Assembly (NCBI GenBank): GCA_000165345.1
Contig: CM000432.1
Location: 1,024,001 to 1,088,000 of the forward strand
DNA length: 64,000 bases
Direction: 5' to 3'
Shown: positions 10,820-43,150 of the stretch, one piece after another
Position numbering within the stretch: position 1 is the stretch's first letter
Layout: each line of letters begins with the position of its first letter
The notes under the pieces: generated by a model
Database searches by the model: none
What the model was told of the DNA's origin: nothing
The model's input: the letters and a program-made list of their open reading frames with translations, nothing else
Translations under genes and position numbers: made by a program

Positions 10820-10871
10820 GGCGCCAATAATTGTTACATATACCGGCATTCCACATGTAGGCGCCAGGCAA
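10820..10871. promoter_or_regulatory. two GGCGCC E2F-like elements (10820-10825 and 10860-10865), the second embedded in CCACATGTAGGCGCCAGGCAA, in the divergent promoter of the large scaffold gene (-) and the DEAH helicase (+)
   Basis: Direct reading of the sequence. Confidence 0.5.
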
Positions 10872-10930: not shown

Positions 10931-13333
10931 ATGTCACAATCTGACATACTACCAATTTATCAGCATAAAAAGGAGTTATTGTCATTAATTCGAGAAAATG
11001 ATGTTTCTGTGATAGTAGGAGAAACAGGGAGTGGTAAATCAACTTTGTTACCAGCTTTCCTATATGAAGATGGGTTTGTACAAGATAAAAAGATGATTGC
11101 AGTAACTCAACCAAGAAGAATTGCTGCTATTTCATTGGCAGAGTATGTTGCAAAGCTACTAAAAACTAAAGTAGGAAATAAGGTGGGTTATTCCGTTCGG
11201 TTTAAGACTGAAGTATCCAAATACACCAAAGTTAAATATTTGACAGATGGAATGCTTATTAGAGAATGTGTTACAACCAATGGAGAGAGAAGTCCTTTTG
11301 AAAATTATTCTGTGGTTATTGTAGATGAAGCCCATGAAAGGTCAATTCGTACTGATTTTCTTTTAGGCCTTCTTAAAATGGAACTTTTAAATGGAAGTAA
11401 ATTAAAAGTTGTAATTATGTCAGCAACTTTTCAAAGCTCCAGTTTTGAAGATTTTTTTAGCTCCATCAATCCTCAATCTCAGTCTAATTCTGGAATCAAG
11501 CTTAAAACTGGTACTTATTCAGTTCCTGGGAGACAGTTTCCTGTACAATTAAATTATTTACCTGAACCTGAACTGGACTATTTAGAAGCAGTCATGATAA
11601 CAATATTAACAATCCACTTCTCAAAGCCAAAAGGTGGTGACATTCTTGTATTTCTCCCAGGTCAGGAAGATATTCATCATTTATATTCCAATTTGACAAC
11701 AATATCTAAACAAATTGAAGCCTTGTTTGAGCAACAAGGAGAAATCAGCTTTTATCTAGGTAAGCAGAAGTTTGAAAATATTGAAAGAATTCGATTATTT
11801 GTTCAATGTCTTTATGCTTCAATGCCTTCTGAACAACAAAGTAAAGTATTTGATATTCTTCCAGAAAATTATAGAAAAGTTATTCTTTCAACTAATATTG
11901 CAGAAACATCTGTAACTTTACCCAACATTGTTTACGTTATTGACACTGGCCTTGAAAAACTTAAGTTCTTTCAAAGTAACAATAATATTGATGCTTTGAT
12001 TATGAAAGAAATATCAAAAGCTTCTTCAATACAAAGAGCTGGAAGAGCTGGAAGGCTTAAGCCTGGAGAAGTTTATCGTATGTATACAAAACAAGCATAT
12101 TCAGAGTTTATGACTTCTCAAACTCCTGAAATATTAAGAACTAGTCTCTCTGAGACTTTGCTTGAACTTATTTATGTTCTTAATAACTATAAAACTAATA
12201 TATTTCAACAAGGTATTTCCAATTCATCCAATAATGACCATACTCTACTTATTGATCAACAACAAGTTTCTGTGAAAAAAATCCTAAATTTTCCATTTAT
12301 TAGTTATCCAACTAAGGATTCCATTCTTTCAACTCTCAAATTCTTATATAGACTCGAAGCTTTAAATAAAAGTGGAAATATTACTGAATTAGGTATTAAA
12401 CTAACTATGCTTCCAGTACCTCCATTTCTTGGTAAACTCATTTATCATAGTATTGAGTTTGGATGTACAAGTGAAGCAATCACTCTTGTAGCAATGCTTT
12501 CAGCTGAATGCTTGTTAGACTATTGCAATAGCAGCAATAATCCAAAAGATAAAGTCTATGGTTCATTACAAGAAAATCATTCTGATCAAGTTGGACCAAC
12601 TAAGAAAAAACCTAGATTTACTCATAATTCATCATCCAGAAATGACCAATCCTATAAAAATTACCTTAGATCAATTATGACAAAGTTTGGAGATCATGTT
12701 GGCTTAATTGAAACCTATAACACTTGGATTTCTTTGCAAAAAAGTTCTGGAAAAACCAATAATATACAAGGAAATATCATCTCTTCTAGTAACAATTATG
12801 AACAAATCAATTTTTGTAATTCTATTGGAATCTCACATACCAGTCTTTTAAGAGCAAAATCTATTAGAGAGCAGCTTATTGATATCACCACAAAGATATT
12901 TAACTTAAAAACTATTAACAGTTGTACTATGTTTACTTCTCTTAAACATAGTCATCCTGAATCCTTTGAATCTGAATTTAATCAAGAACAGAAACAGCAA
13001 AAGCAAGAGCAAGAACAAGAACAAGAACAAGAACAAGAAAATAAATGGATTCCCTTTTACAAATGCCTTACAAAAAGTTTCTGGCAAAATGTTGCCAAGC
13101 TAGATCCTAGTAATAATAAACAATACCTAACTGAGGTCAACAGACAACTTGTGAATATACATCCCACTAGCAGTGTTTCACATTTAAAGGAAAAACCTAA
13201 ATGGATCATTTTCACAGATATTATTCAAACTAAAAAGACTTATATACGAATTATCTCAGCCATTAATCATTTATGGCTCAATGACTACTGCTCCAGATGG
13301 TTCATCTCCACTGAAACAAACTCCAAACATTAA
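10931..13333 (+). CDS. DEAH-box ATP-dependent RNA helicase (DHX family)
   Basis: Helicase motifs are present: motif I GETGSGKST, motif Ia TQPRRIAA, motif II DEAHER and motif III SAT. Helicase-C and a C-terminal HA2/OB-like region follow (QRAGRAGR). An EQ(EQ)n insertion is encoded by a (CAAGAA)n microsatellite at about 13003-13038. Confidence 0.9.
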   Translation: MSQSDILPIYQHKKELLSLIRENDVSVIVGETGSGKSTLLPAFLYEDGFVQDKKMIAVTQPRRIAAISLAEYVAKLLKTKVGNKVGYSVRFKTEVSKYTKVKYLTDGMLIRECVTTNGERSPFENYSVVIVDEAHERSIRTDFLLGLLKMELLNGSKLKVVIMSATFQSSSFEDFFSSINPQSQSNSGIKLKTGTYSVPGRQFPVQLNYLPEPELDYLEAVMITILTIHFSKPKGGDILVFLPGQEDIHHLYSNLTTISKQIEALFEQQGEISFYLGKQKFENIERIRLFVQCLYASMPSEQQSKVFDILPENYRKVILSTNIAETSVTLPNIVYVIDTGLEKLKFFQSNNNIDALIMKEISKASSIQRAGRAGRLKPGEVYRMYTKQAYSEFMTSQTPEILRTSLSETLLELIYVLNNYKTNIFQQGISNSSNNDHTLLIDQQQVSVKKILNFPFISYPTKDSILSTLKFLYRLEALNKSGNITELGIKLTMLPVPPFLGKLIYHSIEFGCTSEAITLVAMLSAECLLDYCNSSNNPKDKVYGSLQENHSDQVGPTKKKPRFTHNSSSRNDQSYKNYLRSIMTKFGDHVGLIETYNTWISLQKSSGKTNNIQGNIISSSNNYEQINFCNSIGISHTSLLRAKSIREQLIDITTKIFNLKTINSCTMFTSLKHSHPESFESEFNQEQKQQKQEQEQEQEQEQENKWIPFYKCLTKSFWQNVAKLDPSNNKQYLTEVNRQLVNIHPTSSVSHLKEKPKWIIFTDIIQTKKTYIRIISAINHLWLNDYCSRWFISTETNSKH
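13003..13038 (+). repeat. (CAAGAA)n hexanucleotide repeat encoding (EQ)n inside the DEAH helicase
   Basis: caagagcaagaacaagaacaagaacaagaacaagaa. Confidence 0.9.
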
Positions 13334-21423: not shown

Positions 21424-24400
21424 ATGATACACGATGTTTTACTTTCTCTTACAGGGTTTGTTGGGGATAAGATTGAAGTGGACCCTGTAGAATTTACAAG
21501 TAACTCAATTTCTTTGTATAGTTATAAATATAGATTGAGACTCAAATCTAATATTGAGGAATATTTATCAGAAACTGAAAAATTATTAGTGGACAAGATT
21601 TTGCATATTTCTAGCAACTTCTATTCTGTTAATGAATTTGTTAAAAGAGTTCTAGGCTCTGTGTACAACAAGCATAGTAATTATAATTCAAATACAAACA
21701 CGAATCCAGCTTTTGGATCAAAATTTAACCAAGAAAAGAGCCATCAACTTCAAATTAGAGCAGATCTTAAGAAAAGATTACTCAGAATTAACCCTGTTGG
21801 ACTATATATACATGCAGTAGCAAAATGCATGCAGGAGTATATTCTTCGATTTCTTCAGAAGATTAATCAGTTAGAAAGAGAAGTTTTTGAAAATCCGAGT
21901 TTGCCTCTTACTTTTGTACTAACTTCAATAACAAAACCCTCCAGAGTTTTAGATAATTTTATGGCATTCATTGATGAGTGGTATAATCTTGCTCTTAATT
22001 CAAGAGTAGATTCTACATGTAAATTCTCGTTTTCAAATATGTTTATTACAATGGAAAAATTTGAAAATTTGTGTGAAATATATATAAGTATTCCATGTGG
22101 ATATATATTGGATTATTTCTATTTGGGAGTGTCTTCTGGAGATTTACTTCAGGAATCAGTGAGCAAAAACTTTCTATTGGTATGTAGTCGAATCTTTTGC
22201 TATCAAATGATAAATTGGATTATTTTAGGAAAGTTGGTTGACCCTTTTGAAGAGTTTATTGTCGGAAGGTTTTCCATTTCAGCTCCTACTAATTCATTAA
22301 ACTCCCAAAAGGATGCTAACTTTTCAAACTCATTTTCAATCTCTTCAAATGATAGGTAAGTTTGAGTTTTTGGTTAAATTGAAGAATAACCATTTTGGAA
22401 TCTTTTTAATTTTTACAAATCATTCTAATTAATCTTTAATATAGCTGTATTGAAGCCTTGGACTTGGATGAAAATTTATGTAAACTTTATCGTGAGGAGG
22501 AAATTTCCCATTGCGGGGTTTTTGAATGGGAGGGACTATTTTATACCAGATATGAATCCTTTACGAAGAAATTCTTTACAGTAAAGTTCCTTTACAAAAT
22601 CTTTGGTATTGGGAAAATTGTAAGTAAATCTTGTTCTTCCTTAGATAAGGAAGATTTTTATTTGTATTTATTCTCAAACAATCCTCATTTCCTTCTAATT
22701 TTTAGGTAAGACTTCTAAATAGATATGGGAATAGTAATATTAGAGATAGAATGAATGAAACAGGGTTTGAGAGTTACATTAATCAAATTTCAAACATTCT
22801 TAATGAATCGTTTCCGCATATTCAGTCCCAGTTGGAAGGGTTTCTTGAAAAATTCAGAAGGGAGATTTCTTTTATTATGTATGAATCAATAATTTTAAGA
22901 AGCCAAAACAACATAGCACACAAATTTGCATATAAAAATCTTTTTTCTCAAAACATCAAATTAATCCGAAATTTATATTTCCTTGGGTATTCTGACATTT
23001 TTCTTCAACTAGATAATTCCATTTTCTACAAAAATCTAAGCTATGATGACTCCCAAACACGTAATACTAACTTTACTGAACAGTCTGAATTCATCTCAAA
23101 CACTTGGAAAGAACTTTTGTCTTTATTCAAATTAGGCAATATTACCTCAAGTATTCATAATGATTTCTCAAACTCCAGAATTAACTTATGCTGCGACACA
23201 TTTGATCTTTTCAACTTTAACCTAAACGAGCTCGAATTAATTGACATGTTTAATTGCTCCCTTACAAATAACAATATACTCCTTTTTGGCGGGAAATCTG
23301 AAATGCATGCAGACCAATATTTGCATTCTGAAAATGAAAAATTAAAGAATGAAGGTGATGAGGGCCATGAAGATTATATTTCTGAAGATTTTGGTATTAC
23401 AGATTGCAACTTTGATTTTCCTTATGAAAATTTTCATGCAATTTCAATCTCTAGAGTCAAGTGGCCAATTCGTATCATAGATGGCTTTAATCATATATTA
23501 GAATGCGTTTCTTCTGTAAACGTAGTTTCATCTTTATTGTTCGCAGCATCTAATAGTATTCCATTTATTGGCGATGGAATTTGTACTTCTCAGGAGGATG
23601 GTTCAGGACACGATGGTGAGTTTTTAAGACTTACGTGGAGCTTTAGATTTAAGGATGAAAATAAACAAGTTATGGAATTCTGTATTAAGCTGTATTGGCA
23701 TACAAAACACTTGAGATCTTTGTTAAATACTGAAAAGGAGTATTCACTATTAAAAACCAATTTACTTGAAGTTCCCAATCCCTTTATCAATTTAATGGAA
23801 GGCGATTTATTCGCATATAGACTTAGGATTTTGTTCAAACAATCAAATATTTCAATATATATGGAGCCACTAAAAAATACCCTTCCTGGCTCAAATTCAC
23901 TCTTTGGAAGACCAACTCAGGTACTGAGTATTCAACATATTAATATTGATATTTGTTTACCTTTGCATACTTCGTCATGTTTTATTCATCTACTAAGACA
24001 TAATGATCACGCAAGATTCGAAAAGGAGAAAGAATTTAAGGTTTTTAAATGGTGTCATATAAGTTCCTCTAATAATTCAGATGTAATTTCTCAGCTAGCA
24101 AACTCTTGCAGCATGGGAGCGTCTTCAAGTACAAACTATAACTTTAATTTATTAAAAAACGTCTCGTTAAATTCTTATCTAAGTGGAATAAGCTTTGATC
24201 ATCATATATTTAGATTAAGAATTATCCAGAAATTTGATTGGCCGTTACCACTTTTATTCACAAAAAAGAATATGGAACATTACTATAATCTATTTGATTT
24301 TTATTGGCTATTTTTCAGAACATATAATGGGCTTGAAAGGATTTGGAGAGAGGCTTTCAATCTAAGATATGGAAATAGAAGAGGGGCATTCACTTCATTT

Positions 24401-25390
24401 TCTATTGAACATCCAGTGAACCATTTTTGGAATTATATTTTTTACTGTAGATGGGTTCTACAAGTAACAATTGGTGAATATTACTCTTTTCTTCAACACT
24501 TTGTAGTTGAACAAAGCTTCAGAGACTTTCTCGATAAGGTCAAGGAAGAGCAAGATTTTGAGAATATTATCCAAAAACATAATGACCTTGTTCAAACACT
24601 TATTCTTAAATCGGGGTTCCTTTTACCCTCTATTTTAAACCCATTAACATCAATTCTAGTTTTAACAGGTGAATGGAGTTACTCTATTTTTAGAGAAATA
24701 TCTAGATGGAATGATTCCAGCGAATTTATTGAAGCAAATTACACATTCTCAAATGCTGAAGAGATTAAATTCCCATGGGATAGTGATGAATGGCAATCTA
24801 TTATCAATAGTACAATAAATTTCATGAATAACTTTATTCTACTCTGGGATAATCTTTGCTCTGAAATTTCAATAGTTTCAAGTAATATTCAATATCAACA
24901 CTTTAGCCTTTTGCTATCTATTTTCAATAATCACAAATGGAATATTGATATACCTGACCTTAATAATGCTAACAACAGAAAAGCTTTCCCTTATGGCTCT
25001 TTTGGTCCATCACACTCGGACTATAATTATGGGGATGACGAATACAGAGAGGAAACTGTAACACACTCCGTAGTAGACCGTTCGGAAGACTTTGAAAGCG
25101 ACAACTACACAGATTCAAGAGAAGAGGACAATAGCGATAACTATTTCAATAGTCAAGATGATCTTGAAGATGATTATGACAATGAACTTGATTTATTCAG
25201 AGGTGAATTTAATGAATACAATAATAATAACGACAATGATGAAAATAATAACGAGAATAAACAAAGTCAATACTCACCACATATGCTTGATGGAACAAAT
25301 AACAGCTATATCGAGCTCATAAACTCCAAACTTAGTGCCACTTATCTAAAAACAAACAAAATCGAATATAATAGCTATCAGAGTTCATAA
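21424..25390 (+). CDS. gamma-tubulin complex protein (GCP/Spc97-Spc98 family, GCP4-like N-terminus) with long insertions and an acidic C-terminal tail. Three exons at 21424..~22355, 22445..22619 and 22706..25390, giving about 1263 aa
   Basis: The N-terminus MIHDVLLSLTGFVGDKI matches the conserved GCP N-terminal signature (compare human GCP4 MIHELLLALSGYPGSIF). The C-terminal GRIP2-like region reads WLFFRTYNGLERIWREAF...HNDLVQTLILKSGF. The track gives three ORFs (21415, 22458, 22751), joined by GAT AG|GTAAGT at about 22356 to an ATAG acceptor at 22444, and by AAA ATT|GTAAGT at 22620 to a TTTTTAG acceptor at 22705. Phases are consistent (2 then 0). The track start 21415 is TTG. Confidence 0.75.
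22356..22444 (+). other. predicted intron 1 of the GCP gene (about 89 nt)
   Basis: Donor GTAAGTTTGAG and acceptor TTTAATATAG. It removes the TAA that terminates track ORF 21415..22359. Coordinates are accurate to about 1 nt. Confidence 0.55.
22620..22705 (+). other. predicted intron 2 of the GCP gene (86 nt)
   Basis: Donor GTAAGTAAATC and acceptor TCTAATTTTTAG. The downstream exon begins GTA AGA CTT in frame with the 22751 ORF. Confidence 0.6.
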
Positions 25391-28423: not shown

Positions 28424-29390
28424 TTACTTCTCCTTATTACTTGTATTATTTGCATTTTCAAAATTATTATTATTATTATCTAAACCAATAGAAGACATAA
28501 AATCTCTCACATCATCTATTGTTATGGTATTTTTATTTTGGTCATCACTCATTCTGCTTCTTAAAAATGATATAAACTTATCAGCAAATTCTCTATAACC
28601 TTGAGCTAAATGTATCTTCTTTTCATGAGGTAATGAATTAAATATATTTGCAAAACCATTAATTCCGTTTGCTCCTGATTCACCAGATTCACTCTCATCT
28701 GAGCCACTAAATCCAAAAATATCTCCTTCGAGTATTTCCTGAATAGTAATTGTTTTGTCATCTTCAGAATCTTCTATTGTATCTTCGTTTACATTGTCCA
28801 AGATTTCATCGCTTTCTTTAATATTTTCAATCTCATCCTTATTCTTGCAATATCTCAAAGAAATTCCATTATAATTTAAATGGGTTATTCTTTCTTTACT
28901 TTCAAAAACTACTCTAGTATTATCTGACTTAAATTCATCTCTTTCTTCATATTTGAGCTGTTAAATTAAAAGAAGTTAATTTGTTTGTTTTAATTGGATT
29001 TAATTAAAAGATTCTTTTGAAAGTACAAATCAAGCCTTATCTTTCTAATCAAACCAAAGACTTGACTTGAATTGACTTATCAAATATATTAACTTAACTT
29101 ACCATATAAACTCTTCTACCTTTTGAATCCCTTTCCTCATTTTCTGTCATTAATATTCTCCCTGGCCACCACACAATTTCCTCTTTTTCTAATAATTCTT
29201 TAGAATTATCATGATCACAAAATTCGGTACCTATTATCCACTTTAAAAGTGATATTTAAATACAGAATTTTAATGTTTTAGGAAAAAAAATTGGTTAACT
29301 TACTCTTACAAAGATTGTTTGGCCAATATTTATTCCATAGGAAGCCTTTAAGATTGCAATATCACAAAAATCTCTAATTTGATTACTCAT
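28424..29390 (-). CDS. three-exon gene on the minus strand (29390..29304, 29240..29103, 28957..28424) encoding a 252-aa protein with an acidic, S/E/D-rich C-terminal half; function unknown
   Basis: ATG at 29390 gives MSNQIRDFCDIAILKASYGINIGQTIFVR and ends at AGA|GTAAGT (29303). A TTTTAAAG acceptor at 29242-29241 opens the next exon WIIGTEFCDHDNSKELLEKEEIVWWPGRILMTENEERDSKGRRVYM, ending at ATG|GTAAGT (29102). A TTTAACAG acceptor at 28959-28958 opens LKYEERDEF..., which runs into the track ORF 28424..28858. All phases are 0. An alternative first donor TTT|GTAAGA sits 6 nt upstream. Confidence 0.6.
28958..29102 (-). other. predicted intron (145 nt, GTAAGT...AACAG)
   Basis: See the exon logic of the 28424..29390 gene above. 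Confidence 0.55.
29241..29303 (-). other. predicted intron (63 nt, GTAAGT...TTAAAG)
   Basis: See the exon logic of the 28424..29390 gene above. Confidence 0.55.
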
Positions 29391-30021
29391 TATAGCATTA
29401 ATTAATGAAAAAGATATAGGTTCATACTATACTTGCTATTAATACAAACGCTTGGATTAAGCAATATATTCAAACAAATAATAGAATATTACGTATTTTG
29501 ACCTCTTGTTATCTTTTCTTAATTAAATATTCGAAAGATTTTACTAAAATAAGAAAGTTCACTTTTTTTTGAGTTACTTTTTATTATTTTTTAATAAATT
29601 ATTAATTAGTCCTTAATTTTCCCTCATTTACCTATTTACCGGAATTTTCTATTCCAGAATTTAATATACTAAGACGTTATAAAACTTTATTTAGAAAAAG
29701 TTTTGTGGGAATTCAAATCCAATCCGTATATAATAAAAATAAAAATTGCTAGTATTCTCAATATCTTCCATTTTTAATTGTTTCCAGGAAAATACTGTAA
29801 CATGTGAGTTTATTTATAGCTATATTTTGATTAATTTAAATATATCTATACGTAGATACACTAATGTTTAAAGTTAGAGTTATCAATATTGATATTTACT
29901 TAATTTAGAAAATCAGAAAGAATTTTTATCTGCTCCTTTTTGAAATTTAAAGTTTTTTAAATCTCCTACTTCCCCTCGATTAAATCTTTAATTTTGCATT
30001 AATATTATTGGGTACCCTCCA

Positions 30022-30036
30022 TTTAGGCGCCAAATG
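30022..30036. promoter_or_regulatory. E2F-like TTTAGGCGCCAAATG in the divergent promoter of the 3-exon gene (-) and the RING-H2 gene (+)
   Basis: Direct reading of the sequence. Confidence 0.5.
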
Positions 30037-30236
30037 ATTTATCTAATATAATTAATGGCCGAGTTGGAAAAAAAAATAAAAAGATTTAAGGAATACAAAG
30101 AAAAAATAATAAAAAGCAAATAGAGAATAAGATTTATTAAAAGGGTTGAAATTGGTGGATTTAGATTACTGAGGGAATTGGTATAGATTTGATAGGTTTA
30201 GAGTAAAGAGCAGAGTAAAAGAAAAGAAGAAATTAA

Positions 30237-31777: not shown

Positions 31778-34384
31778 TTACTCAAAACCTTTAATTTTGA
31801 AAGGTATATTCTTCACAAGAAAGTTCTTCAAAGTCAAAGCATCAATTAAGAGCGATATCCAAATATCTGAACCAAATATATTTATAGTCTCATAATAAAT
31901 TTCTTTGTTTTGCTCGAATTTACTACAATTCGGAGAAATTAAAGCTCCTTTAAATGTTTGAATAATTCTTGATGATACTAACTTCCGAATAATAATCTTA
32001 ATAGATACTGTATCCAAATATTCTATATATGAATACCCTACTAATGATAGAATTGTAAGCATTCTTTTTTCAATCTTTAATAAAGAAACAGAATTCTCAT
32101 AAGCTGAATTATCAGAATAAGATAATTCAATTTCATCATCAAAGCCTACAGTCCCATCATCTTTCTCTTCAAGTTCCATTTTATGTTTGAATTCAAGCTC
32201 CAAAATTAATGAGGCCAAAAATACTTTATATGACAAAGGAAGAGTTTCAACTAAATTAATTGATACATTATTTAATAAAACTTCTCTACATGCAGCTTGT
32301 ACATGTGGAATTTGAACTTGAAGCTTCTTGTTAGATTTGTTACTTTTATCTATTTTGGAATTTTTGGCTTGCTCAAATTCTTGTTTACAAATTTCCCAAG
32401 CTCTATGAAGGACTTGGAGTGCTCTCCTAACATCAGAAGATTGTTGAGCAATTCTCCTAGCACAGAACTCAACAGCTTTATGACAAAATACGGACTCAAG
32501 ATCTTCTTGTAAAGTTTCAATATTCTTATTTTTGTTTTTATTTCTAATTCTAGGACTTAACCTTCTTCCTTGATCATTTTTATCGCAAGTTTCAATATTA
32601 ATATCAGGTAAGCCAGGAGAAAAATACTTAACTCTATCATTTAAAATAGTGATCATATCTTCAACAGAAAATGGAGTAAAATTGACTCTTGCATAACCAC
32701 ATCTGGATGTACATCTTGGTATAAGTCTTTCAGGAAGATCCATTGTATTAGCAATTGCTATTATGATTAACTTTGTATTTTTTTGGAATGGCCAATCAAT
32801 TAAAGTATAGAGTAAAGAATTGTTAGATCCTTCCATAGTAGAATGTGAAGTTCCATTTTTTTGAAGCCAGTCAATTTCATCAATAACAAGAATAGTAATT
32901 GGGCTCCCTTTAGCCTTTAAATACTTGTCTAAAGATGTATAACATGCTTCTTTATTTGGAGCCCATGTATTAGCTCCATTAAGTTTTTGAAGAAAAGTTC
33001 TGTAAAAATGATCAGGACTACTTAAATGAAGAGCATTAATATAACAAACAGAAATTTTACTTTGATTTTTATTACTCAAATTCATTTCTGTCTCAAGCAT
33101 ATCCAATGTATTTAATACTGTTGCAGTTTTACCAGTACCTGGCAAACCTGCAATAAATAAAACTCCACCTCCTTCATTTAAAATGGAAGTTTTAAGTACA
33201 AGTGTGATTTCTTCATGCTCCTTTTCTCTACAAGGTAGAACTTTTTTTGGACGTTTTGACCAATGTAAATCTGATATTTCTTTGCTTCCAGTAGTTCCTT
33301 GTATTCCATCAAGAGAATCGCCACTTAATTGTGTTCTATTTGATCCAGAACTCATTGAGAGTTGCTTTAAAGCCATATAATTTGTATAATATCCATAGTA
33401 ACTACTACATCTTGAAAGTAAATATGATAAATTTCTTCTTTCACTAATTGGGACTATTGTACCAGTATCAGTTAAAACAAGATACAATGCTAAATAGTTA
33501 TCAGAAACTTCTACAGAATAAGAAGGAAGATCATCATTAAACTCCTTTATGTACTCAATTAATCTCTCATCATGATATTTACAAGAGACAAAACTTTCTT
33601 CTCCTTTGTGAAGAGTTTCTGGATCACATTTCTGAGGGCCAGAATATATTTCCAAACAATCTTTAGTCCATTTCAAATAATCTTTTTTGATATTCCAAAT
33701 ACGAATCATCCTTTTAATTACACTAGCTTCTAAAACTTCACATTTATCGCTTTCAAGGAACTCTTCTTCAAATGTGAACAAATTATCTGGCAATTTAGAT
33801 TTATCAATAATTTTACCTAAATCAAGCAAGTCGTGTTCAGAGTAAAACCATCTTAACTCCACCCCTTGTAAATCTTCTTCAGGATCATATAGAAAAGCCG
33901 TAATTTGTGCTGGTCTTTCATCTCCATTTGATAAACAAACCATTACGTGGTCTCCAATAGTGAACACATCTTTTTCTTCTTTGCTTTCTATTATAAGATG
34001 TGTATATAAGTGATATCCTTGGGAAGTTACTATTGGAGATTTCATCATTTCAGTATTTCCCTCAAATTTATCCAAATGATTTGAAATTTCAAAACTCTCT
34101 AATTTAACATTCTTCCCTTTACGTCCTCTCTTATTCTTTATTTCAAATACTTCCATATCTTTTTCAACTTTTCTTTTTTTTCCATTTGAATACTTTGAAT
34201 AATTATCTGTTGCCAAACCATAAGAAATGGTTAGATATTCAATATTAAAGAAGTACCTTTTTTCATTTTTTCTTCTTCCTCTTTTCAAAATACTCTTGCT
34301 TTCCACCAATTTTGAGGATTGGAGCTTAGACCCCGTGCTCTGCCTAAGTTCAAAGCTTGTAATTCTTCTATCTACTATAGCCAT
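31778..34384 (-). CDS. ORC1: origin recognition complex subunit 1 (ORC1/CDC6 family AAA+ ATPase with N-terminal BAH domain)
   Basis: A BAH domain (FTIGDHVMVCLSNGDERPAQITAFLYDPEEDLQGVELRWFYSEHDL) is followed by AAA+ motifs: Walker A GLPGTGKTATV, Walker B ITILVIDEIDWL, and a sensor plus winged-helix region near the C-terminus. The track start 34396 is TTG, with the first ATG at 34384. Confidence 0.8.
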   Translation of the reverse strand: MAIVDRRITSFELRQSTGSKLQSSKLVESKSILKRGRRKNEKRYFFNIEYLTISYGLATDNYSKYSNGKKRKVEKDMEVFEIKNKRGRKGKNVKLESFEISNHLDKFEGNTEMMKSPIVTSQGYHLYTHLIIESKEEKDVFTIGDHVMVCLSNGDERPAQITAFLYDPEEDLQGVELRWFYSEHDLLDLGKIIDKSKLPDNLFTFEEEFLESDKCEVLEASVIKRMIRIWNIKKDYLKWTKDCLEIYSGPQKCDPETLHKGEESFVSCKYHDERLIEYIKEFNDDLPSYSVEVSDNYLALYLVLTDTGTIVPISERRNLSYLLSRCSSYYGYYTNYMALKQLSMSSGSNRTQLSGDSLDGIQGTTGSKEISDLHWSKRPKKVLPCREKEHEEITLVLKTSILNEGGGVLFIAGLPGTGKTATVLNTLDMLETEMNLSNKNQSKISVCYINALHLSSPDHFYRTFLQKLNGANTWAPNKEACYTSLDKYLKAKGSPITILVIDEIDWLQKNGTSHSTMEGSNNSLLYTLIDWPFQKNTKLIIIAIANTMDLPERLIPRCTSRCGYARVNFTPFSVEDMITILNDRVKYFSPGLPDINIETCDKNDQGRRLSPRIRNKNKNKNIETLQEDLESVFCHKAVEFCARRIAQQSSDVRRALQVLHRAWEICKQEFEQAKNSKIDKSNKSNKKLQVQIPHVQAACREVLLNNVSINLVETLPLSYKVFLASLILELEFKHKMELEEKDDGTVGFDDEIELSYSDNSAYENSVSLLKIEKRMLTILSLVGYSYIEYLDTVSIKIIIRKLVSSRIIQTFKGALISPNCSKFEQNKEIYYETINIFGSDIWISLLIDALTLKNFLVKNIPFKIKGFE

Positions 34385-35129
34385 TTTTCTTGACAAAATC
34401 TCACTAGATTTTTTCCCCTAATCAATCAAACTTTGTATAGTTATTGAAAATAATCCATCTAATCTAATATATTCTTACTTTTTTTAAATACTTTTTACTC
34501 AATTACTATATTTTTGTTTAAATCAATAACATAAGTTAAAATATCACAAATTTGTTCTTAGAAAAAATATCAAGTACTCTGGTAGAACTGTTTAAGATGA
34601 ATTTATATTAAAATAATCTCCACTTTTCTTTATAACTTAACAAAATATTAATTATTATTTGTTTTTTTTTAATTATTATTTTCAGAAAAAAAATAGTTAC
34701 TAAAGAGGGGCGAAAAGTGGGGAAACATTACAAAATGTCAACTTGTACTTTTTAAGCTTCAAGAAATATATAGTAATATTAATAATAATAATTTTTTAAA
34801 TTAGGCCTACTCTTCTCATAGAATAATAATATATAAAAAATAATTAATTTATGATTTTTTCACTTTGAAGATTTATAAATAAATTTTCTACATAAATGAA
34901 GAAGAAATTAACTAAATTCATTTTAAAAACGGGAATAATTACCAAAAATTCTATTCTTTACAATATTTGTATGTACCTTAAAAATAAAAATAAATGCATG
35001 AATTTAGATAATTATAGGTCTATTGAACTTGCTTGTTTTAATTATTCTTATACAGATATTTTTGCTTCCTTAATATCCCACAATTATTGCCATTTTACTA
35101 ATATTTTCGGTTAAAGTTATAAAGCAAAA

Positions 35130-35148
35130 GGCGGGAAATGTGCCCGCC
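35130..35148. promoter_or_regulatory. palindromic double E2F-type site GGCGGGAAA-TGTG-CCCGCC in the ORC1 (-) / Hook (+) divergent intergenic region
   Basis: GGCGGGAAA is the reverse complement of the canonical E2F consensus TTTCCCGCC. An inverted CCCGCC copy lies 4 nt downstream. A further GAGGGGCGAAAAG lies at 34706-34718, nearer ORC1. Confidence 0.55.
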
Positions 35149-35684
35149 GAGTGTGTATTGGTGCATTATTTGCACAGGAAAAATACACATGGGGAATAAG
35201 AGATGATAAATAGAAAACAAAAAAGATAAATGTAATATACGGATATACGAATATATATATACATATATATGTATAAATTTATATATTTATATATGAATTA
35301 AGAATTTTAATTATAAGGATCGTCAGCACAAGAATTGTTGCAAAACTGATATTAAAGACACGATTAATTTTGAATAAGAGAATTGATAAGAAAGTGAGTA
35401 TACAAAAACAGAAGGAAAAGTGTCTGAGAAATAAATTAAATATATAAGAATATATGAAGCTGGTTAAAATTGAGTTGCATTTTTCTGCGTATTCTTAACT
35501 TTGAAAGATAGAGAAATTTGAACTATTTTTAATAAGCTGGGTGCATTCATAGAATTGGCTTTATTTTTATCATGCAATATCTGTATTTTTTATAATTAAA
35601 AAAAGGATTAATAAAATATTAAGAAAAATATAAAGTAAACAAAGTAAACCGATTATTTTAAGCAAAAATAAACAGGAATATAAA

Positions 35685-37430
35685 ATGGGAACAAAAATTA
35701 AGAATCCACAAAAGACTTTGAAATGTTGCTTCGAGTGGTTTAAGACATTTAAAATAATGGAAAGTGATGGTGTTGTTTGTAATGATGTTTTTGATGTATT
35801 AACCCCAAGCAATTTAATATTATTTATTCAGGAATTATCTCCAATGTTTTTTGCCGACTATTCTTTAACAGAAGAACATAATAAAGAAATAGCGAAAGGG
35901 CTACATTTCTTAATGGACAGTATCAATGACTATATGGACGGTAGATTTTGTGATGAAATTGACGCTTTAGATTATGATTTGATTGCTTCTGCAATTGAAA
36001 AAAAAGGTAAGGTGCAAGATGATATTTTATGTGAAATATGCAGAGTATGTGGATTTGTTATAGTATTTGCAGTAGAAAGTGAGTATAATGAGGATGTCAT
36101 TAGTAATATGATGATCTTAAGTGAAGATGCCCAAATAGAGTTGCAACATATGATTCAAGTTACTGGAGAATTTGCTGAGGAAGAAGAAGAGGAAGAACCA
36201 GAGGAAGAGGTTGGTGATCGATCCGTTTTGGGAGGAGGACAAGTAGGAATAAGTTTGGCTCATGCTGATGAATTGGAGAGAAGAATAGAAACTTTGGAAA
36301 GACAACTTAAATCTGAGCAAAAAGCCAGACAAACAGCAGAGGATGCATTAAAAAAAGCCTCAGCAAAACCAAAGTCTGCAATTGAAGAGACTGAAAAGCT
36401 TGAAAATGAAGTATGGAATCTGCAAAATGAAAAAACACAACTAATAAAAGAAAAAAAAGAATTAGAAACTAAATTAAAAGGAGATATTAAGGACCTTCAA
36501 TCTGAAATTGATTTATATAAGACAGAAGCTGGAAAAGTCGAAGGATTAGAACAACAAATTAAAAAGCTTAAAGAAAAAGTAGATAGCCTTTTGGACTTAA
36601 AAAGACAGAATGAGAAGCTAATCAAGCAATTAGAGGAATTAGAAGAAAATGGTGGTGGTGGTGGAGGAGGAGATGGAGGAGATTCTGAAGGAAATAAGAA
36701 ATCATCACAGTTACTTAAAGACCGAATTTCTGATTTAGAAGAAGAGCTTGAGAAAAATGAAAATGAAAAGGATGAATTAAATGAACAATTAACTAAAGTT
36801 AAACAACAATATGAAAAGCTTCAAAAAGAGCTTAAAATTAAGCAAGACCAAGTTAAAGTTTTAGTTAAGCTTTTAGATGAAAATGGAGTGTCTATTGCAG
36901 GGAAGGTTGACATTAACTTAGGAGAAGCTGAATCATTTCCTACACCTGGAACAGAAAGCTTTTATATTACTCAACTTTCAATTTTGACAGAACAATTAAA
37001 TATGCAAAAGCAACTACTTTTAAGCGAACAAAAACGCATACAATTATTAGAATCACAAGGGTTGAAAACAAATAGTGGAGATGAGTCAACTCATGCTGAT
37101 GGAGCTTCAGGAAGTGATTTTGCTACAATCAATACCTTAAAGCAGCAAATCATGATTAGAGAACAAGAAGCTGAACTTCACCTTTCTGCTAAAAAAGAGA
37201 TTGAGAAAAGAACTCAAATGGAACTTAAATTATTGTCTACATGCTTGCATGATATGGCACTTAGATATCATCAATGTAAATCTATTATCAAGCAACTTGA
37301 TGAGGAGCTTTCATCTTTAAAGCAAAAATGCCAAATATCTATTAATACTGTTGAACAAGAATCTGCTGCTTTTAATAAAGATAATGTTGGTAATTTGAAT
37401 CAAGTTCCGAATAATGAATATATTAATTAA
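35685..37430 (+). CDS. Hook-domain coiled-coil protein (Hook/microtubule-tethering family-like)
   Basis: The N-terminal about 150 aa (LKCCFEWFKTFKI...LILFIQELSPMFF...ICRVCGFVIVFAVESEY...IELQHMIQV) resemble the Hook N-terminal CH-like domain. The remaining about 400 aa are heptad-rich coiled coil with E/K repeats and a poly-Gly linker (GGGGGGGDGGD, 36650-36690). Confidence 0.65.
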   Translation: MGTKIKNPQKTLKCCFEWFKTFKIMESDGVVCNDVFDVLTPSNLILFIQELSPMFFADYSLTEEHNKEIAKGLHFLMDSINDYMDGRFCDEIDALDYDLIASAIEKKGKVQDDILCEICRVCGFVIVFAVESEYNEDVISNMMILSEDAQIELQHMIQVTGEFAEEEEEEEPEEEVGDRSVLGGGQVGISLAHADELERRIETLERQLKSEQKARQTAEDALKKASAKPKSAIEETEKLENEVWNLQNEKTQLIKEKKELETKLKGDIKDLQSEIDLYKTEAGKVEGLEQQIKKLKEKVDSLLDLKRQNEKLIKQLEELEENGGGGGGGDGGDSEGNKKSSQLLKDRISDLEEELEKNENEKDELNEQLTKVKQQYEKLQKELKIKQDQVKVLVKLLDENGVSIAGKVDINLGEAESFPTPGTESFYITQLSILTEQLNMQKQLLLSEQKRIQLLESQGLKTNSGDESTHADGASGSDFATINTLKQQIMIREQEAELHLSAKKEIEKRTQMELKLLSTCLHDMALRYHQCKSIIKQLDEELSSLKQKCQISINTVEQESAAFNKDNVGNLNQVPNNEYIN

Positions 37431-38260
37431 AACAATTTTTTTTGTCATTTAACTTCAAGCCTAATTTCATTGCTCTTGTATTAATTATTAATACATAAAA
37501 TCGCATATACAGAATTTTAATATTAATGGTTTAATCATCTTATTGATATTTTTATAATTAATATTTAGCCTAATTATAGTTCATAAAAAGTTTGATTTAT
37601 TCTCTTTTTTTCTTTTTTAAAAAATTGTATTTGTTTCTTTCCTAAACTGTTTTTTTAAATAATTAATATATAAAAATTAATAATATTAACATGATAGTAT
37701 TAAAGGGATTGTTTCAGAACAGTTATGTAAAAACCTAATTTGAACAATCAAATAATTTCTCTCAGAAGCTACAATTATAAATATTCTAATTTAACCTTTA
37801 AGCTAAAAATAATCTAATTTTCACGATTCCTACATTTAATAACATTCATTATATGAAAAAAACTATAGTAGGAAAAAAATTTGTTTCTATTACGTGTAAT
37901 TCAAAATATTAAAGTACACACAAATGTAAATTGTATTAAACAATTGGTATTGAGATATTTAGTTGTTATTTACGTTTCAATAGAAGCTTTGTGAATTCAT
38001 TAAGTTTACCCACAAATTGATAATAAATGTTAAGGGTATTGAGTTTTCAAGAAAATTTAGATTTATGAATTAATGTGATTTAGAAATAATGCTTCAAATT
38101 AACTACAGTAATTTATTTCATTATCTTAATGATTAATTATAAATACTATTATGCAAAAAAAAAAACGGATTGATACGATCCCCCTCAAAAACCACTTGTT
38201 TCATTATATTGCAATTATTTAATATTCAATTAATGTCTTAATAATAATTTAAAGCTAACG

Positions 38261-38269
38261 TTGGCGCCC
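38261..38269. promoter_or_regulatory. TTGGCGCCC element about 225 nt upstream of the DAG-kinase-like gene
   Basis: Direct reading; the GGCGCC core is at 38263-38268. Confidence 0.4.
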
Positions 38270-38347
38270 TTAGTAAGATCCAATTACGTAATAAATTAAA
38301 AGAATAAATTCAGTAAATAATTTACAGAAATATATATAAACATAATA

Positions 38348-38395
<48 letters not shown>

Positions 38396-38490
38396 AATAT
38401 ATTTCCTGTTAATAGGAACACACAAATGTTGTGTTTCTAACACAACCCACAAGCAATTGATTTTTATAAACTTGAATTAATGGTTAAAAG

Positions 38491-40002
38491 ATGGGTTCGA
38501 TCGATTTATCACCAGGTTCCAGCTTTAGAAGTGGATCTTCAATCACATACACAATTTTTTTGTTCGTAAATCCAACTTCTGGAGGCAATAAAGCATCAGT
38601 CTTCACAAAATCTGGGATGGATATGTTCAGGATTTCCAATCCCGTTTCTGCAAGTGTGCATATATATGATATTCGGCAAGGGGAGACGGGAAAAAAAGAG
38701 GGTTTTCTGAAAGTGAAGGAGACCGCAAATAGTATGGGTGACAATTCAATTCCTTTATACATTATTGCAGCCGGTGGAGATGGTACAGTTATGTGGTGTG
38801 TAGATGAATTAGAAAAGACCAGTGTTGATTTCGACAAATTAGTTATAGGTGTAATACCTTTCGGAACGGGGAATGACTTTTCAAGAGCACTAAATTGGAT
38901 GACAATTTTGGATAATCCATTTGATAATGGATTACACAGATTTAGACAACTAATTAGCGATTGGATTAATGCAGACATAATTGAACATGATATTTGGTCA
39001 GTTAAAGCTGTAGTGGATAGCTATGGTTGTTTTTATAAAGTTGATTCTTATTCTAGAAAGAAAAAAGTTGTTAATAAGCAGGGTAGAGCAAATGCAAGAC
39101 AAAGTAATCATGAATTCTCTAGAGGTATTGATAGAGGATCCAACACTATTGCTACTGAATTGACTTTTAGAATGTCCAACTACTTCAGTGTAGGAGTAGA
39201 ATCAAGAATTGGTATAGGATTTGACAGATATCGAACCAAGAACGCAGTCCTGAACAAAATGAGATATGCGCTTGAAGGAGTTAAGAATACATTCCGTCAT
39301 ACAACTCCTGTATACGATATAATTGATAAATGCACAGTAAATACAACTTGTAACAAGGAAGATTCTGATTTAATTGTTTCATCAGAAAAAGTGTTATTTG
39401 TGACTGATCAGAATGCTAAATTTAAGAGTAATTCATGCACATGCTCTAAAGGAGGTTATGAGTTTGTTGATACTCAAAATTCTATTTCCGAGCATAACCG
39501 CCAGTCTACCGGACATTATCAGAACTCCGTAGAAAATCCGTCGCCAACTCTAATGCCTTGCGCTTCTTTAATATTCATTAACATTCCTTCATTTGCCTCT
39601 GGGAATGATATTTGGCGGTATTGTAAAGGGAACTGTGGAATAAAGTTTAAATCGAGACGCGATTCTATTGAAAATATGCTTTTCGAACAACAGAAAATGG
39701 GCGATGAGATTATTGAATGCGTATCGTTTCCTTCAGCTGTGGCAATTGGACTCGAGATCGCTATTAAGGGTATGGGGAGAAGAGTTTTTCAAAACAAAGG
39801 GCCTGTTAGACTTCATTTTAAGCAGAAGAACTCCCTTGCCACTGGTAGAAAGGTTTACTTCCAAGTAGATGGAGAGTTTCTAATCGCCTACCATCCTTTA
39901 TACTTTGACGTTTCTCATTCTCGTAAGATTAAAGTTTTACAAGGAAAAACTGACAGAACCTTACACTCTGCAACTCTTTTTAACAATTTCAAATCCAATT
40001 AG
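38491..40002 (+). CDS. lipid kinase with a diacylglycerol-kinase catalytic (DAGKc) domain, DAG/sphingosine/ceramide kinase superfamily
   Basis: DAGKc signature blocks are present: IFLFVNPTSGGNKA, YIIAAGGDGTVMWCVDEL and VIGVIPFGTGNDFSRALNW. A C-terminal accessory region follows. Confidence 0.8.
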   Translation: MGSIDLSPGSSFRSGSSITYTIFLFVNPTSGGNKASVFTKSGMDMFRISNPVSASVHIYDIRQGETGKKEGFLKVKETANSMGDNSIPLYIIAAGGDGTVMWCVDELEKTSVDFDKLVIGVIPFGTGNDFSRALNWMTILDNPFDNGLHRFRQLISDWINADIIEHDIWSVKAVVDSYGCFYKVDSYSRKKKVVNKQGRANARQSNHEFSRGIDRGSNTIATELTFRMSNYFSVGVESRIGIGFDRYRTKNAVLNKMRYALEGVKNTFRHTTPVYDIIDKCTVNTTCNKEDSDLIVSSEKVLFVTDQNAKFKSNSCTCSKGGYEFVDTQNSISEHNRQSTGHYQNSVENPSPTLMPCASLIFINIPSFASGNDIWRYCKGNCGIKFKSRRDSIENMLFEQQKMGDEIIECVSFPSAVAIGLEIAIKGMGRRVFQNKGPVRLHFKQKNSLATGRKVYFQVDGEFLIAYHPLYFDVSHSRKIKVLQGKTDRTLHSATLFNNFKSN

Positions 40003-40609
40003 TCTAATTTGGAATTTTTAAACAGCATTTTTTCACAGCTTTAAGATATTGACAAAAGTACTATAATTTCTTGCGCAGTGTAACACTGTAACGATGCAAT
40101 ATTAAAATAGTACATATTTTATTTTTAATTATTTTGCTTTAAGGCTTCGTCATAGGCCTAGATATAACGTCTTTTGAACTTTGATTAGACATTTATAACT
40201 ATTAATTACTAATTGTTAATATTTTTAAAAACCTTTTTCTCTTTAATAATGCTGGTAATAACATACTTAGTAATACAACAAATCTGAATTTTGGTCTCTT
40301 TGGCAGTATTGACGCACTTCAACTCTTCGATATTAATTTATTAATATTACATTTTAAGCCATTTTGGCATAAATCAATCAATTTACATGCATGTTCTGGC
40401 GCCATGTCAATTTAATAGTAAAAGTTGGAATTAAAGAAAATAATTACTTAATAGGCAAATATGATGGGATATTGAAATAAATAAACTTAGGAATTTAAGA
40501 GAATTTTGGGGGTAAAAGTAGTAATTGGAGCTTTTTTTTTAAGAAACAAGTTGCTAATAATTGATAAATTAAATTTAATACTAGCTATTTATTCTTTGAT
40601 TTTTGTTTT

Positions 40610-43150
40610 TTAAAAGCTTGGGAACATTTTCGTCATAGTTTTTACTACGGAATAATTCCCCAAATTTCTAAAGGAATTATCTTCATTTATATCATTTAAG
40701 TTGCTATAACGATTAATAGTTTGAGTTTGTTGAGCTTCAATTCCATTCTTTTGAAAGCAATATTTCAAGTCTTTATTTGAATATGATTCATCTAACTCAT
40801 CTCTTTGTTTAATTTCCTTCTGATTTTTCTTCCTAATTGGACTAGGATCTTGAATGAAGTCAAATTTGGAACTTTCCAGAATATTAAGTCTTTTCTTTAC
40901 GAACTCATAAAATTCTATGTCCGACTTTATACGCTGATAAAAAGGAGAAGAGTTAAATCTTTCAATAATACTGATAATATTATTAAAGAATGATTTGCCT
41001 ATTTGTTTTGCAATAAAAGAGGGAACAGCTTTTGGCACAAAATTTGGAATAGGCATATTTGATTTGGATAGGAATGAAATTCTTGTTTGAGATGGACAGT
41101 TTGGCACAGATTGAATGACAAAACATAAAGAGAGTATATCAAGCTTTGAAGCATTAGACTGGGCTTCTTTGACCTTAATTCCACAAACTGAATCAGCTTT
41201 ATCTGGCAGGGAAACTGCAGTAATAATAATGCAGGGCTCAGAGTCCTCTTCTTCTTGCCTGCTAACATCAATAGCTACACAATATAACGAACACTGGCAA
41301 AGACCAATAGGCCAAGGCATATTTGAATAATGACGAACAAGTTGATTATATAATCCAATATATGCCAAACATTCTGAACTTGTAACAAATGGAGCCCATT
41401 TAAGGTGTAAATCGCATTCATTTACAATACTGACCACATTTATTGGATTAGTATTTACGATATTATCACATAGTATTAGAAATTCTGATTCATTACCCAT
41501 AGTCCACCACATCCCCAGGTTAGAATCACCAAGTGAATTCCATTCAGAATTTGAAATTTCTGCTTTGATCGATTTTTCGTCCAAATTACGGTAAAACTGT
41601 TCTTCACATTTATTATTTAGATGCTTTTTCTTATATTTAAGAGCTAATACTAAATCTGTATAGCTTGTTGAGCACTTATATAATGCAAATCTTAATCTGT
41701 GGATTTGTGGATTAGTAACCAATTTAGTGATAAATTCACAAAGCCTGGAATCCTGCTCTAAACCTAAACACTTGACTTCTGTTGGGAACTTTAAGTACTC
41801 TAATGCAATGTTACGGTCACTAATTGATGAGAATTTATTGTTACTTGTTGGGAAACAGTTTTGTGAAAATATTATACACGGAAAATCTTCTAATCTAATA
41901 AGCTTTGAATTTAAATTTGTTTTTGAAGTTTCCATATTCTCCAAAAAAACACTTTCACGATTTTTACCAGTTTCTTTATTTTCTCCAGATATTTTTGGAA
42001 GTAGGGAAAATGATTCCAAGAAAAGTTTGCCTTTCTTACATCCAATTCCTACTTGAGAAGCCAATTCTGATGTAGATGACTTTGAGTTATTACTAATATT
42101 ATTTCCGCCATTACTACAACTACTACTTAAATGATATCTCCATTTTCTTGAGCTTCCTGTTCCTGATGAACTATTTAAGTTGGAAGAACTTCCATTTGAA
42201 AACTTTATTGGGACTCCATTTCTATTCAAATGAACTGGCTCTATAATTAATTTGTTTTTTGAAGAGTCATTAATATTATTTACTAGATTATTTCTATTTG
42301 AACTAAACTTTAAACTCTTTAATGTATTATGAAAAGATGATGTAGATTGAGTATTTGTACTGTTGTTCTGGCTATTGTTTGAAATTGTTTCATTATTACC
42401 TGTTTTGTTATTTAAGATAAGATTCATCTCTAAAATAATAGAGTTTCCAATACCTATTCTTTTTTCAATTATTCCAAATAAGAATTCAGAAAGCTCTAAA
42501 AACTTGGAATATGCAATGTATGGTAAATTACTCATAAAATTCTTTAGTATATCCTCTAAAAGTAATTCCAAAAGATCAATTTCTTCATCTTTAGTTTCAT
42601 AATTGATCTCCTCAGTAACACAAAGATTACTCAAGGATTTTGAATGTTCATCAGATTGGAAGTCTATTGAAGTTGTAATTGGAGTAATGTTTGTTGAATT
42701 TAACTTCACTTCAAAGTCTTTCCTGGATTGATTATATGGTGATTTAGGTAAGTAAGGACTATTACAGCTTGTTGTTGTTGTCGCCATTAAATTGCCATCC
42801 AAATTAAAATTTTCAATATTTTTTGGAATGAAGCAATTATTTCCAGGATTAGGAACTGAAATCTTAAAAGTTTTAAAATTAAGAACATGATCCTTATCTA
42901 CCCTTTCTTCATTTGTTTGTACAACTTCTTTAGTCTGAAGACTTTGAGATTTTTTTTGAATATTTTCATTTTTCTCACCTTCAGAGATCTCAATATATTT
43001 AGATAGTACATCAAACTTTTCTGAATCTATTCCAGTTCCATTAATTAAATTTTCATTAAAAATGTCATTTACATTATGCTTTTCATTCAATTTTCTTCTA
43101 GACTCATCCAAAAAAGAAAGGAATCCAAATGCTTTACGAAAAGGCTTCAT
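40610..43150 (-). CDS. hypothetical protein (846 aa) with a long N/S-rich low-complexity centre and a conserved-looking globular C-terminal domain of unknown function (a START/Bet v1-like lipid-binding fold is a low-confidence guess)
   Basis: A long ORF. The C-terminal about 300 aa are complex and Cys/Trp-containing (GMWWTMGNESEFLILCDN...PWPIGLCQCSLYCVAIDVSRQEEEDSEPCIIITAVSLPDKAD), unlike the repeat-rich middle. Confidence 0.7.
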   Translation of the reverse strand: MKPFRKAFGFLSFLDESRRKLNEKHNVNDIFNENLINGTGIDSEKFDVLSKYIEISEGEKNENIQKKSQSLQTKEVVQTNEERVDKDHVLNFKTFKISVPNPGNNCFIPKNIENFNLDGNLMATTTTSCNSPYLPKSPYNQSRKDFEVKLNSTNITPITTSIDFQSDEHSKSLSNLCVTEEINYETKDEEIDLLELLLEDILKNFMSNLPYIAYSKFLELSEFLFGIIEKRIGIGNSIILEMNLILNNKTGNNETISNNSQNNSTNTQSTSSFHNTLKSLKFSSNRNNLVNNINDSSKNKLIIEPVHLNRNGVPIKFSNGSSSNLNSSSGTGSSRKWRYHLSSSCSNGGNNISNNSKSSTSELASQVGIGCKKGKLFLESFSLLPKISGENKETGKNRESVFLENMETSKTNLNSKLIRLEDFPCIIFSQNCFPTSNNKFSSISDRNIALEYLKFPTEVKCLGLEQDSRLCEFITKLVTNPQIHRLRFALYKCSTSYTDLVLALKYKKKHLNNKCEEQFYRNLDEKSIKAEISNSEWNSLGDSNLGMWWTMGNESEFLILCDNIVNTNPINVVSIVNECDLHLKWAPFVTSSECLAYIGLYNQLVRHYSNMPWPIGLCQCSLYCVAIDVSRQEEEDSEPCIIITAVSLPDKADSVCGIKVKEAQSNASKLDILSLCFVIQSVPNCPSQTRISFLSKSNMPIPNFVPKAVPSFIAKQIGKSFFNNIISIIERFNSSPFYQRIKSDIEFYEFVKKRLNILESSKFDFIQDPSPIRKKNQKEIKQRDELDESYSNKDLKYCFQKNGIEAQQTQTINRYSNLNDINEDNSFRNLGNYSVVKTMTKMFPSF

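Follow-up and report, generated by a model that had tools for sequence, protein, structure and literature searches.

An inverted pair of E2F-type cores between ORC1 and its divergent neighbour, conserved across Cryptosporidium

ORC1 is a target of E2F in animals and plants, and a palindromic E2F-type element in front of this gene in a parasite raises the questions of what the element is, which gene it serves and whether it speaks for a conserved G1/S replication-gene circuit, as an earlier note on the sequence had proposed. We examined these questions in a 64,000-nucleotide stretch of Cryptosporidium DNA, referred to here as the window. The control of gene expression in Cryptosporidium is poorly understood, and the element described below (the dyad) is a clean and deeply conserved E2F-type example.

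The dyad and its genomic setting

The features of the locus that enter the argument are as follows.

31778–34384, minus strand: coding sequence of ORC1 (ORC/CDC6-like AAA+ ATPase, cgd4_4320), assigned by homology and Pfam
34385–35684, strand not applicable: head-to-head (divergent) intergenic region of 1.3 kb, from the ORF map
34705–34722, minus strand: G-box pair, GAGGGG (34705–34710) and GTGGGG (34717–34722), recognized by conservation
34732–34743, minus strand: AGTTGACATTTT, a conserved motif just upstream of the G-box pair in ORC1 orientation, matched exactly in the window and four other species
35130–35148, strand not applicable: the dyad, an inverted pair of E2F-type cores, GGCGGG-AAATGTG-CCCGCC (GGCGGGAAATGTGCCCGCC), from the sequence
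35150–35159, minus strand: AATACACACT, a CACACA-type motif directly adjoining the dyad, conserved in the alignment
35160–35194, minus strand: remainder of a ~65 bp block, with GTGCA/TGCAC (including TGCAT at 35162–35166) and an inverted TACACATGGG at 35184–35193, from alignments
35685–37430, plus strand: coiled-coil neighbour of 581 aa, from the ORF map, with no confident Pfam family

The open reading frame at 31778–34396 on the minus strand, whose first ATG lies at 34384, encodes an ORC1 homologue. Its product shares 92% identity with C. meleagridis ORC1; outside Cryptosporidium, the top matches in a protein search were ORC1 proteins. These matches place the window in a Cryptosporidium of the C. 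parvum/hominis type and argue against Plasmodium, a source that the AT-richness had initially suggested. The Pfam families AAA, AAA_22 and AAA_lid_10 scored over their cut-offs, and the Cdc6/ORC lid scored slightly under its own. Because of this orientation and start codon, the dyad lies upstream of ORC1, as the earlier note had said. Measured from the dyad centre, the ORC1 ATG is 754 bp away and that of the neighbour 546 bp. Gene order around ORC1 was identical in every Cryptosporidium locus that we fetched, and a syntenic orthologue of the coiled-coil neighbour was found in all of the species. The length of the intergenic region in the window (1300 bp) is close to the 1301 bp upstream region given for "ORC/CDC6-like, cgd4_4320" by Mullapudi et al. 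2007 (PMC1779779), where the gene belongs to the DNA-replication set analysed for motifs. An ORF scan of the intergenic region for a small protein-coding gene returned short AT-rich ORFs only. These lack a conserved frame, with indels of 1–2 nt between close species, and a coding gene in this interval is disfavoured on both grounds.

The dyad consists of two inverted 6-bp arms separated by a 7-nt spacer, and the distance between arm starts is 13–14 bp across species. Its sequence and coordinates agreed with those given in the earlier note, as did the finer description: GGCGGGAAA is the exact reverse complement of the canonical E2F site TTTCCCGCC, and an inverted CCCGCC follows 4 nt away. Read on the minus strand, the left arm (35130–35138) is thus an exact match to TTTSSCGC, TTTCCCGC(C). 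The right arm (35143–35148) has the core CCCGC without the T-run (GTGCCCGCC). An arrangement of this kind is exceptional in the window: GGCGG-N6-12-CCGCC occurs once where 0 are expected, and no dinucleotide shuffle contained a match. So GC-rich a dyad is rare because the window is AT-rich, with a GC content of 22%–33% in 2 kb windows.

Conservation across the genus

We compared the syntenic ORC1 loci of C. meleagridis, chipmunk genotype I, C. ubiquitum, C. felis, C. bovis, C. ryanae and C. andersoni, together with one more Cryptosporidium ORC1 locus from a public read set; C. meleagridis was represented twice (L001 and L002), which gave nine loci. The dyad lies at the orthologous place in the window, C. 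meleagridis, chipmunk genotype I, C. ubiquitum (where the second arm is GCCGCC), C. felis and the read-set Cryptosporidium. The pattern GGCGG-N-CCGCC was found once, in the orthologous place, in seven of the nine fetched loci, representing six species. C. bovis carries GGCGGT-N8-GCCGCC, and C. ryanae carries GGCGGT-N8-CCCGCT, a version with one mismatch to the pattern; both keep the GCGG and CCGC cores. The intergenic region of C. andersoni is much shorter, and its counterpart of the dyad is diverged and doubtful. The cores are therefore kept, in position and orientation, in eight Cryptosporidium species, and the motif passed the comparison of orthologous promoters that the earlier note had named as a test.

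The dyad is the 3' end, in ORC1 sense, of a block of ~65 bp (35130–35194 in the window) that reads CCCATGTGTA...TGTGCA...ATGCACCAATACACACT-N-GGCGGG-N7/8-CCCGCC on that strand. The block is conserved in six species, and the intergenic DNA around it is hardly alignable. The adjoining motif is tied to the dyad in a fixed orientation: each of eight loci carries ACACACT-N-GGCGG exactly once, on the ORC1-sense strand every time, and ACACA is invariant in a nine-species alignment. The TGCAT of the window copy is not conserved in all species. Footprinting by shared 7–9-mers, with the window's intergenic region compared to those of five distant species, was dominated by AT-rich low-complexity matches, and observed numbers were about those of shuffles; the words shared that were not AT-rich were AATACACACT(CGGCGG), TTGACATTTT and CCCCACTT.

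These observations bear on whether the palindrome could be a functionless chance match in GC-rich sequence. Short E2F-like words do turn up where they probably mean nothing: one of the five copies of GGCGGGAAA in the window, at 23288, falls on in-frame codons of a coding sequence and is probably incidental. For the dyad, on the other hand, zero occurrences are expected, and the cores and the block around them are retained at the orthologous position even where the ORC1 proteins are only 51%–66% identical and the intergenic DNA is otherwise unalignable. One occurrence against none expected, kept across species, places the dyad beyond chance. Its conservation effectively refutes the chance reading, to which we attach next to no probability, and the element is almost certainly functional.

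A conserved inverted repeat could also act as a structured nucleic acid, either a small noncoding RNA or a DNA or RNA hairpin with two stem-loops, one stem being GGCGGG/CCCGCC. Both strands of the block do fold better than shuffled sequences (z = −4.3 and −3.6), and the dyad stem is 94% complementary over nine sequences; two positions change on both sides of a stem, provided that the doubtful C. andersoni alignment is accepted. Against this, 24–38 of 500 shuffles reach the observed values, and the proportion of paired cells in the nine sequences (82%) is close to that in shuffles (79%). RNAalifold gave 0 compensatory pairs among six species, with a positive (penalizing) covariation term; helix 1 is interrupted by substitutions (67% paired), and C. 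ubiquitum and C. ryanae have lost the innermost pair of the dyad stem. Rfam yielded no match at the gathering threshold and only chance-level matches at E up to 10, no tRNA was found, and the downstream T-run is not conserved. Paired protein-binding sites predict the dyad symmetry equally well, and for this reason we consider a structured RNA or hairpin very improbable.

Within the dyad, what is conserved is the GGCGG and CCGCC cores. The canonical T-run is restricted to the window, C. felis and the read-set Cryptosporidium, and in the last of these it lies on the opposite arm. A factor other than E2F/DP (an ApiAP2 protein, a zinc-finger protein or another GC-box binder) might be at work, the likeness to E2F sites being superficial: the T-run is excluded from the conservation, the symmetry of the dyad would fit a homodimer, and we found no binding or mutational tests of Cryptosporidium E2F/DP (ChIP, CUT&RUN, EMSA or reporter) in the searchable literature. 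Yet the substitutions in the arms (CCCGC to GCCGC and, tentatively, to GGCGC in C. andersoni) remain within the E2F consensus SSCGC. Moreover, GGCGGG is classed as E2F-like by its similarity to known E2F/DP sites, is not among the published binding motifs of AP2 domains, and belongs to a motif class found across the genome together with GGCGCC, the palindromic form that is typical of E2F. We regard a factor outside the E2F/DP family as unlikely.

E2F-type motifs in the window and in published work

E2F-like motifs are abundant well beyond the ORC1 locus. TTTSSCGC was found eight times in the window against 0.78 expected, and GGCGGGAAA occurs exactly five times (23288, 25504, 35130, 55790 and 57393). 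Sites at least as canonical as the dyad include gttGGCGCCaaaa at 2561, ttttCCCGCCaaaa at 55793 and gtttCCCGCCaaaa at 57396, so that the earlier note's description of the dyad as the most canonical E2F-type element of the whole window does not hold. A scan for E2F-like cores (GGCGGG/CCCGCC and [CG]GCGC[CG]) returned 16, of which 15 lie in noncoding DNA. Noncoding DNA makes up 24% of the window (binomial P = 5.6e-9), and the excess exists despite its lower GC content (23.5%, vs. 29.6% in coding DNA). The only coding core is the GGCGGGAAA copy at 23288 mentioned above.

The genes adjoining these cores encode beta-adaptin, a PHD-finger protein, an ABC transporter, an amino-acid transporter, a DEAH helicase, an M16-type peptidase, a TPR protein, a DAG kinase and a RING protein. 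In one other promoter a pair of GGCGCC cores, at 10820 and 10860, is spaced by 40 bp, and the neighbouring RING and DAG-kinase genes have GGCGCC cores ~200 bp upstream that are, like the dyad, conserved between species. Since the cores stand upstream of unrelated genes, the motif class marks promoters generally and not replication genes; a selective association with replication or cell-cycle genes was not seen in the window.

This distribution agrees with what has been published on the genus. Cryptosporidium is described as the only apicomplexan genus that has retained E2F/DP factors (PMC3734150; PMC12246861), and the literature gives C. parvum two or three E2F genes and two DP genes. An Rb (pRb) orthologue has been reported in no apicomplexan (Oberstaller 2013; PMC3734150). 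The E2F-like motif is the most abundant promoter motif of C. parvum, located upstream of 161 of 200 expression clusters. Oberstaller et al. 2013 describe GGCGGG as motif 4 and [C/G]GCGC[G/C] as motif 3, both noted earlier (Bankier 2003; Mullapudi 2007), and TTTCCCGCC and GGCGGGAA(A) are among the published cluster consensus sequences. No other upstream motifs are as over-represented as the E2F-like ones, GGCGGG among them, and these have been remarked on for DNA-replication and glycolysis genes. The E2F-like motif also dominates ATAC-seq peaks in sporozoites, and over half of these peaks carry a bidirectional-promoter annotation. ORC1 transcript measured by RT-PCR is bimodal, peaking at 6 h and 24 h alongside other DNA-replication genes (PMC3305300).

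The presence of this motif class in C. parvum promoters, including those of DNA-replication genes, is thus already known. It also settles how much can be read from a single occurrence: where an E2F-type motif is nearly universal, finding one upstream of ORC1 is no evidence for a conserved G1/S circuit. The proposal of the earlier note that the dyad suggests such a circuit is unsupported, given a motif at most promoters and no reported Rb. What is new is more modest, namely that the paired, composite arrangement is kept across the genus and lies unusually far from either start codon. We found no description of a fused E2F-pair/CACACA composite conserved across the genus in the Cryptosporidium motif literature that we consulted.

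The regulated gene and comparison with known systems

The reading that we favour, and hold to be moderately probable, is that the dyad is an inverted pair of E2F/DP-type cores within a ~65 bp composite cis-regulatory module, placed midway in the bidirectional promoter region of ORC1 and the coiled-coil gene. The module would combine CACACA and TGCAT motifs of ApiAP2 type with the two E2F-type cores. Under this proposal, parasite E2F/DP heterodimers would bind both cores, possibly with ApiAP2 factors on the flanking motifs; their binding would create or maintain a region of open chromatin, from which transcription could start toward one or both of the flanking genes. The sequence of the dyad, its statistical rarity, its position, its conservation across the genus in a fixed orientation and the spread of its motif class over promoters are observed directly, and the identity of the binding factor and of the regulated gene, with any link to cell-cycle timing, is inferred.

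Several observations speak against this proposal, among them the variable T-run and the doubtful C. andersoni counterpart described above. The other E2F-like cores of the window lie ~70–325 bp from the nearest gene start, and the dyad, at 546 and 754 bp, is farther than that from both ATGs, so that the proposal has to postulate long 5' UTRs or an unannotated transcript.

A second element of the intergenic region lies closer to ORC1. The earlier note had listed a weaker E2F site, GGGGCGAAAAG, at 34706; it starts at 34707 (34707–34717), and the CG of its supposed E2F core is replaced by A in C. meleagridis, chipmunk genotype I, C. ubiquitum and C. felis. What is conserved at this place is the G-box pair, which covers the site and reads CCCCAC-N6-(G/A)CCCCTC in ORC1 sense. 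In seven species a CCCC[AT]C pair stands upstream of ORC1, 307–446 bp from its ATG, against one copy (−263) in C. felis. GTGGGG and GAGGGG, taken together with their conservation, match the G-box consensus G[T/C]GGGG or G.GGGG. The motif next to the pair, AGTTGACATTTT, is exact in the window, C. meleagridis, chipmunk genotype I, C. ubiquitum and C. felis, and has one mismatch in the read-set Cryptosporidium. The G-box pair, ~330 bp upstream of the ORC1 ATG, may be a separate, ORC1-proximal element.

It is conceivable that the module drives mainly the divergent neighbour (35685–37430), or an unannotated intergenic or antisense lncRNA, and that ORC1 is driven by the G-box pair and AGTTGACATTTT. 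The dyad is nearer to the ATG of the neighbour, and its distance from that ATG is better conserved (445–569 bp across species, vs. 660–1082 bp to the ORC1 ATG); the extra ~300 bp of C. bovis and C. ryanae falls between the dyad and the G-box pair. For a noncoding transcript, E2F/DP1 ranks first among the motifs in the 100 bp upstream of C. parvum lncRNAs (PMC7840661), but no conserved ORF or Rfam RNA was detected in the intergenic region. Cluster 63, the expression cluster to which cgd4_4320 belongs, does not appear among the E2F-enriched clusters that Oberstaller 2013 lists for motif 3, nor among the legible entries for motif 4, an absence that is weak evidence against an E2F link to cgd4_4320. 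The textbook standing of ORC1 as an E2F target in animals and plants points the other way. We judge a module serving chiefly the neighbour or an lncRNA to be a serious contender that is nonetheless less probable than the shared promoter. The dyad's proximity to the neighbour, the steadiness of that distance and its remoteness from either ATG compared with the other E2F-like cores call for caution in assigning it to ORC1, which, like the divergent neighbour, is a candidate target.

A bolder version of the favoured proposal can be imagined, in which the dyad and the CACACA/TGCAT block form a cooperative E2F/DP–ApiAP2 enhancer that confers stage or cell-cycle specificity beyond that of single sites. 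We consider this a long shot. If true, it would amount to a combinatorial code joining the ancestral E2F system and the apicomplexan AP2 system at a replication-licensing gene.

The closest known counterparts of the dyad are the E2F-like motifs 3 and 4 of C. parvum (Oberstaller 2013), with which it shares the organism group, the core sequence and the location in upstream noncoding DNA. It differs from them in being an inverted pair of cores, with starts 13–14 bp apart, that is fused to a CACACA motif, and in its unusual distance from the flanking start codons (546 and 754 bp).

The ORC1 promoters of human, Drosophila and Arabidopsis also carry E2F sites, and the resemblance extends to the ORC1 family target, the upstream TTTSSCGC-type element and the periodic ORC1 mRNA. 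In those organisms, E2F and the pocket proteins of the Rb family form a G1/S switch over a restricted set of genes; in Cryptosporidium, by contrast, most genes have the motif upstream and reports of an Rb orthologue are lacking. Finding the motif here is thus no demonstration that the G1/S circuit is conserved.

Paired inverted E2F sites are familiar from the adenovirus E2 early promoter and from the cellular E2F1 and DHFR promoters. As in the dyad, two inverted E2F cores lie within ~1–2 helical turns of each other, so that cooperative occupancy would be possible. Cooperativity in those promoters needs the viral E4-6/7 protein or overlapping sites; the arms of the dyad start 13–14 bp apart.

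The remaining parallel is with the ApiAP2 system. The G-box G[T/C]GGGG, CACACA and TGCAT are motif types bound by multiple C. parvum ApiAP2 domains (PMC4117751). The supposed weaker E2F site matches two G-boxes, and the sequence flanking the dyad contains matches to CACACA and TGCAT.

Conserved elements upstream of ORC1

We looked for conserved elements in the intergenic region (34385-35684) between ORC1 and the divergent coiled-coil gene, and compared it with other Cryptosporidium ORC1 loci.

34732-34743, minus strand: AGTTGACATTTT, ~350 bp 5' of the ORC1 ATG
35226-35297: tract of TA-rich, low-complexity sequence resembling (TA)n/(TATG)n, inside the ORC1 intergenic region
L009 1-1102: ORC1 upstream region of a Cryptosporidium-like organism (Logan SRR31860986 contig)

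AGTTGACATTTT was found exactly in the window, C. meleagridis, chipmunk genotype I, C. ubiquitum and C. felis, and with one mismatch in L009; it had no match among the published C. parvum motif families in the literature examined. It could be a transcription-start or factor-binding site. The L009 ORC1 protein shows 66% identity, and its upstream region has a GC content of 38.6%, compared with about 19%–29% in the other loci. Despite this much higher GC, L009 retains the inverted E2F-type dyad, the CACACA block and the G-box pair, at similar distances.

The genome is compact, and the ORC1 intergenic region is one of three exceeding 1 kb among those measured (the others being 28859-30236 and 37431-38490). 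The conserved module lies near its center, distant from both start codons, a placement that may point to unannotated transcripts or to 5' UTRs of unusual length. On each strand, the tract at 35226-35297 gives weak mir-297 matches that fall below threshold and are almost certainly spurious.

E2F-like cores elsewhere in the window

10820-10865: pair of GGCGCC cores spaced by 40 bp, 71-111 bp upstream of the DEAH-box helicase gene (10931-13333)
40398-40403: GGCGCC core in a tail-to-tail intergenic region, flanked by genes at 38491-40002 (plus) and 40610-43150 (minus)

The pair at the helicase gene is another double E2F-type site, so doubling is not specific to ORC1. A scan of the window found a single E2F-like core within coding sequence, GGCGGGAAA at 23288-23296 (ORF 22751-25390), which is in frame, encodes ...LLFGGKSEM... 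and is probably incidental. Because the core at 40398-40403 sits between two gene 3' ends, no protein-gene promoter is expected there, and it may be a candidate mark of an antisense or lncRNA promoter. In published work, the E2F/DP1 motif is reported to rank first among motifs preceding lncRNAs in C. parvum (PMC7840661).

Domain composition of the ORC1 protein

The AAA+ and lid domains were the only Pfam detections in ORC1 (31778-34384, minus strand); neither a BAH nor a C-terminal winged-helix domain was detected by Pfam at E ≤ 0.01. In contrast to this protein, the fungal ORC1 matches recovered by protein search carry BAH (PF01426).
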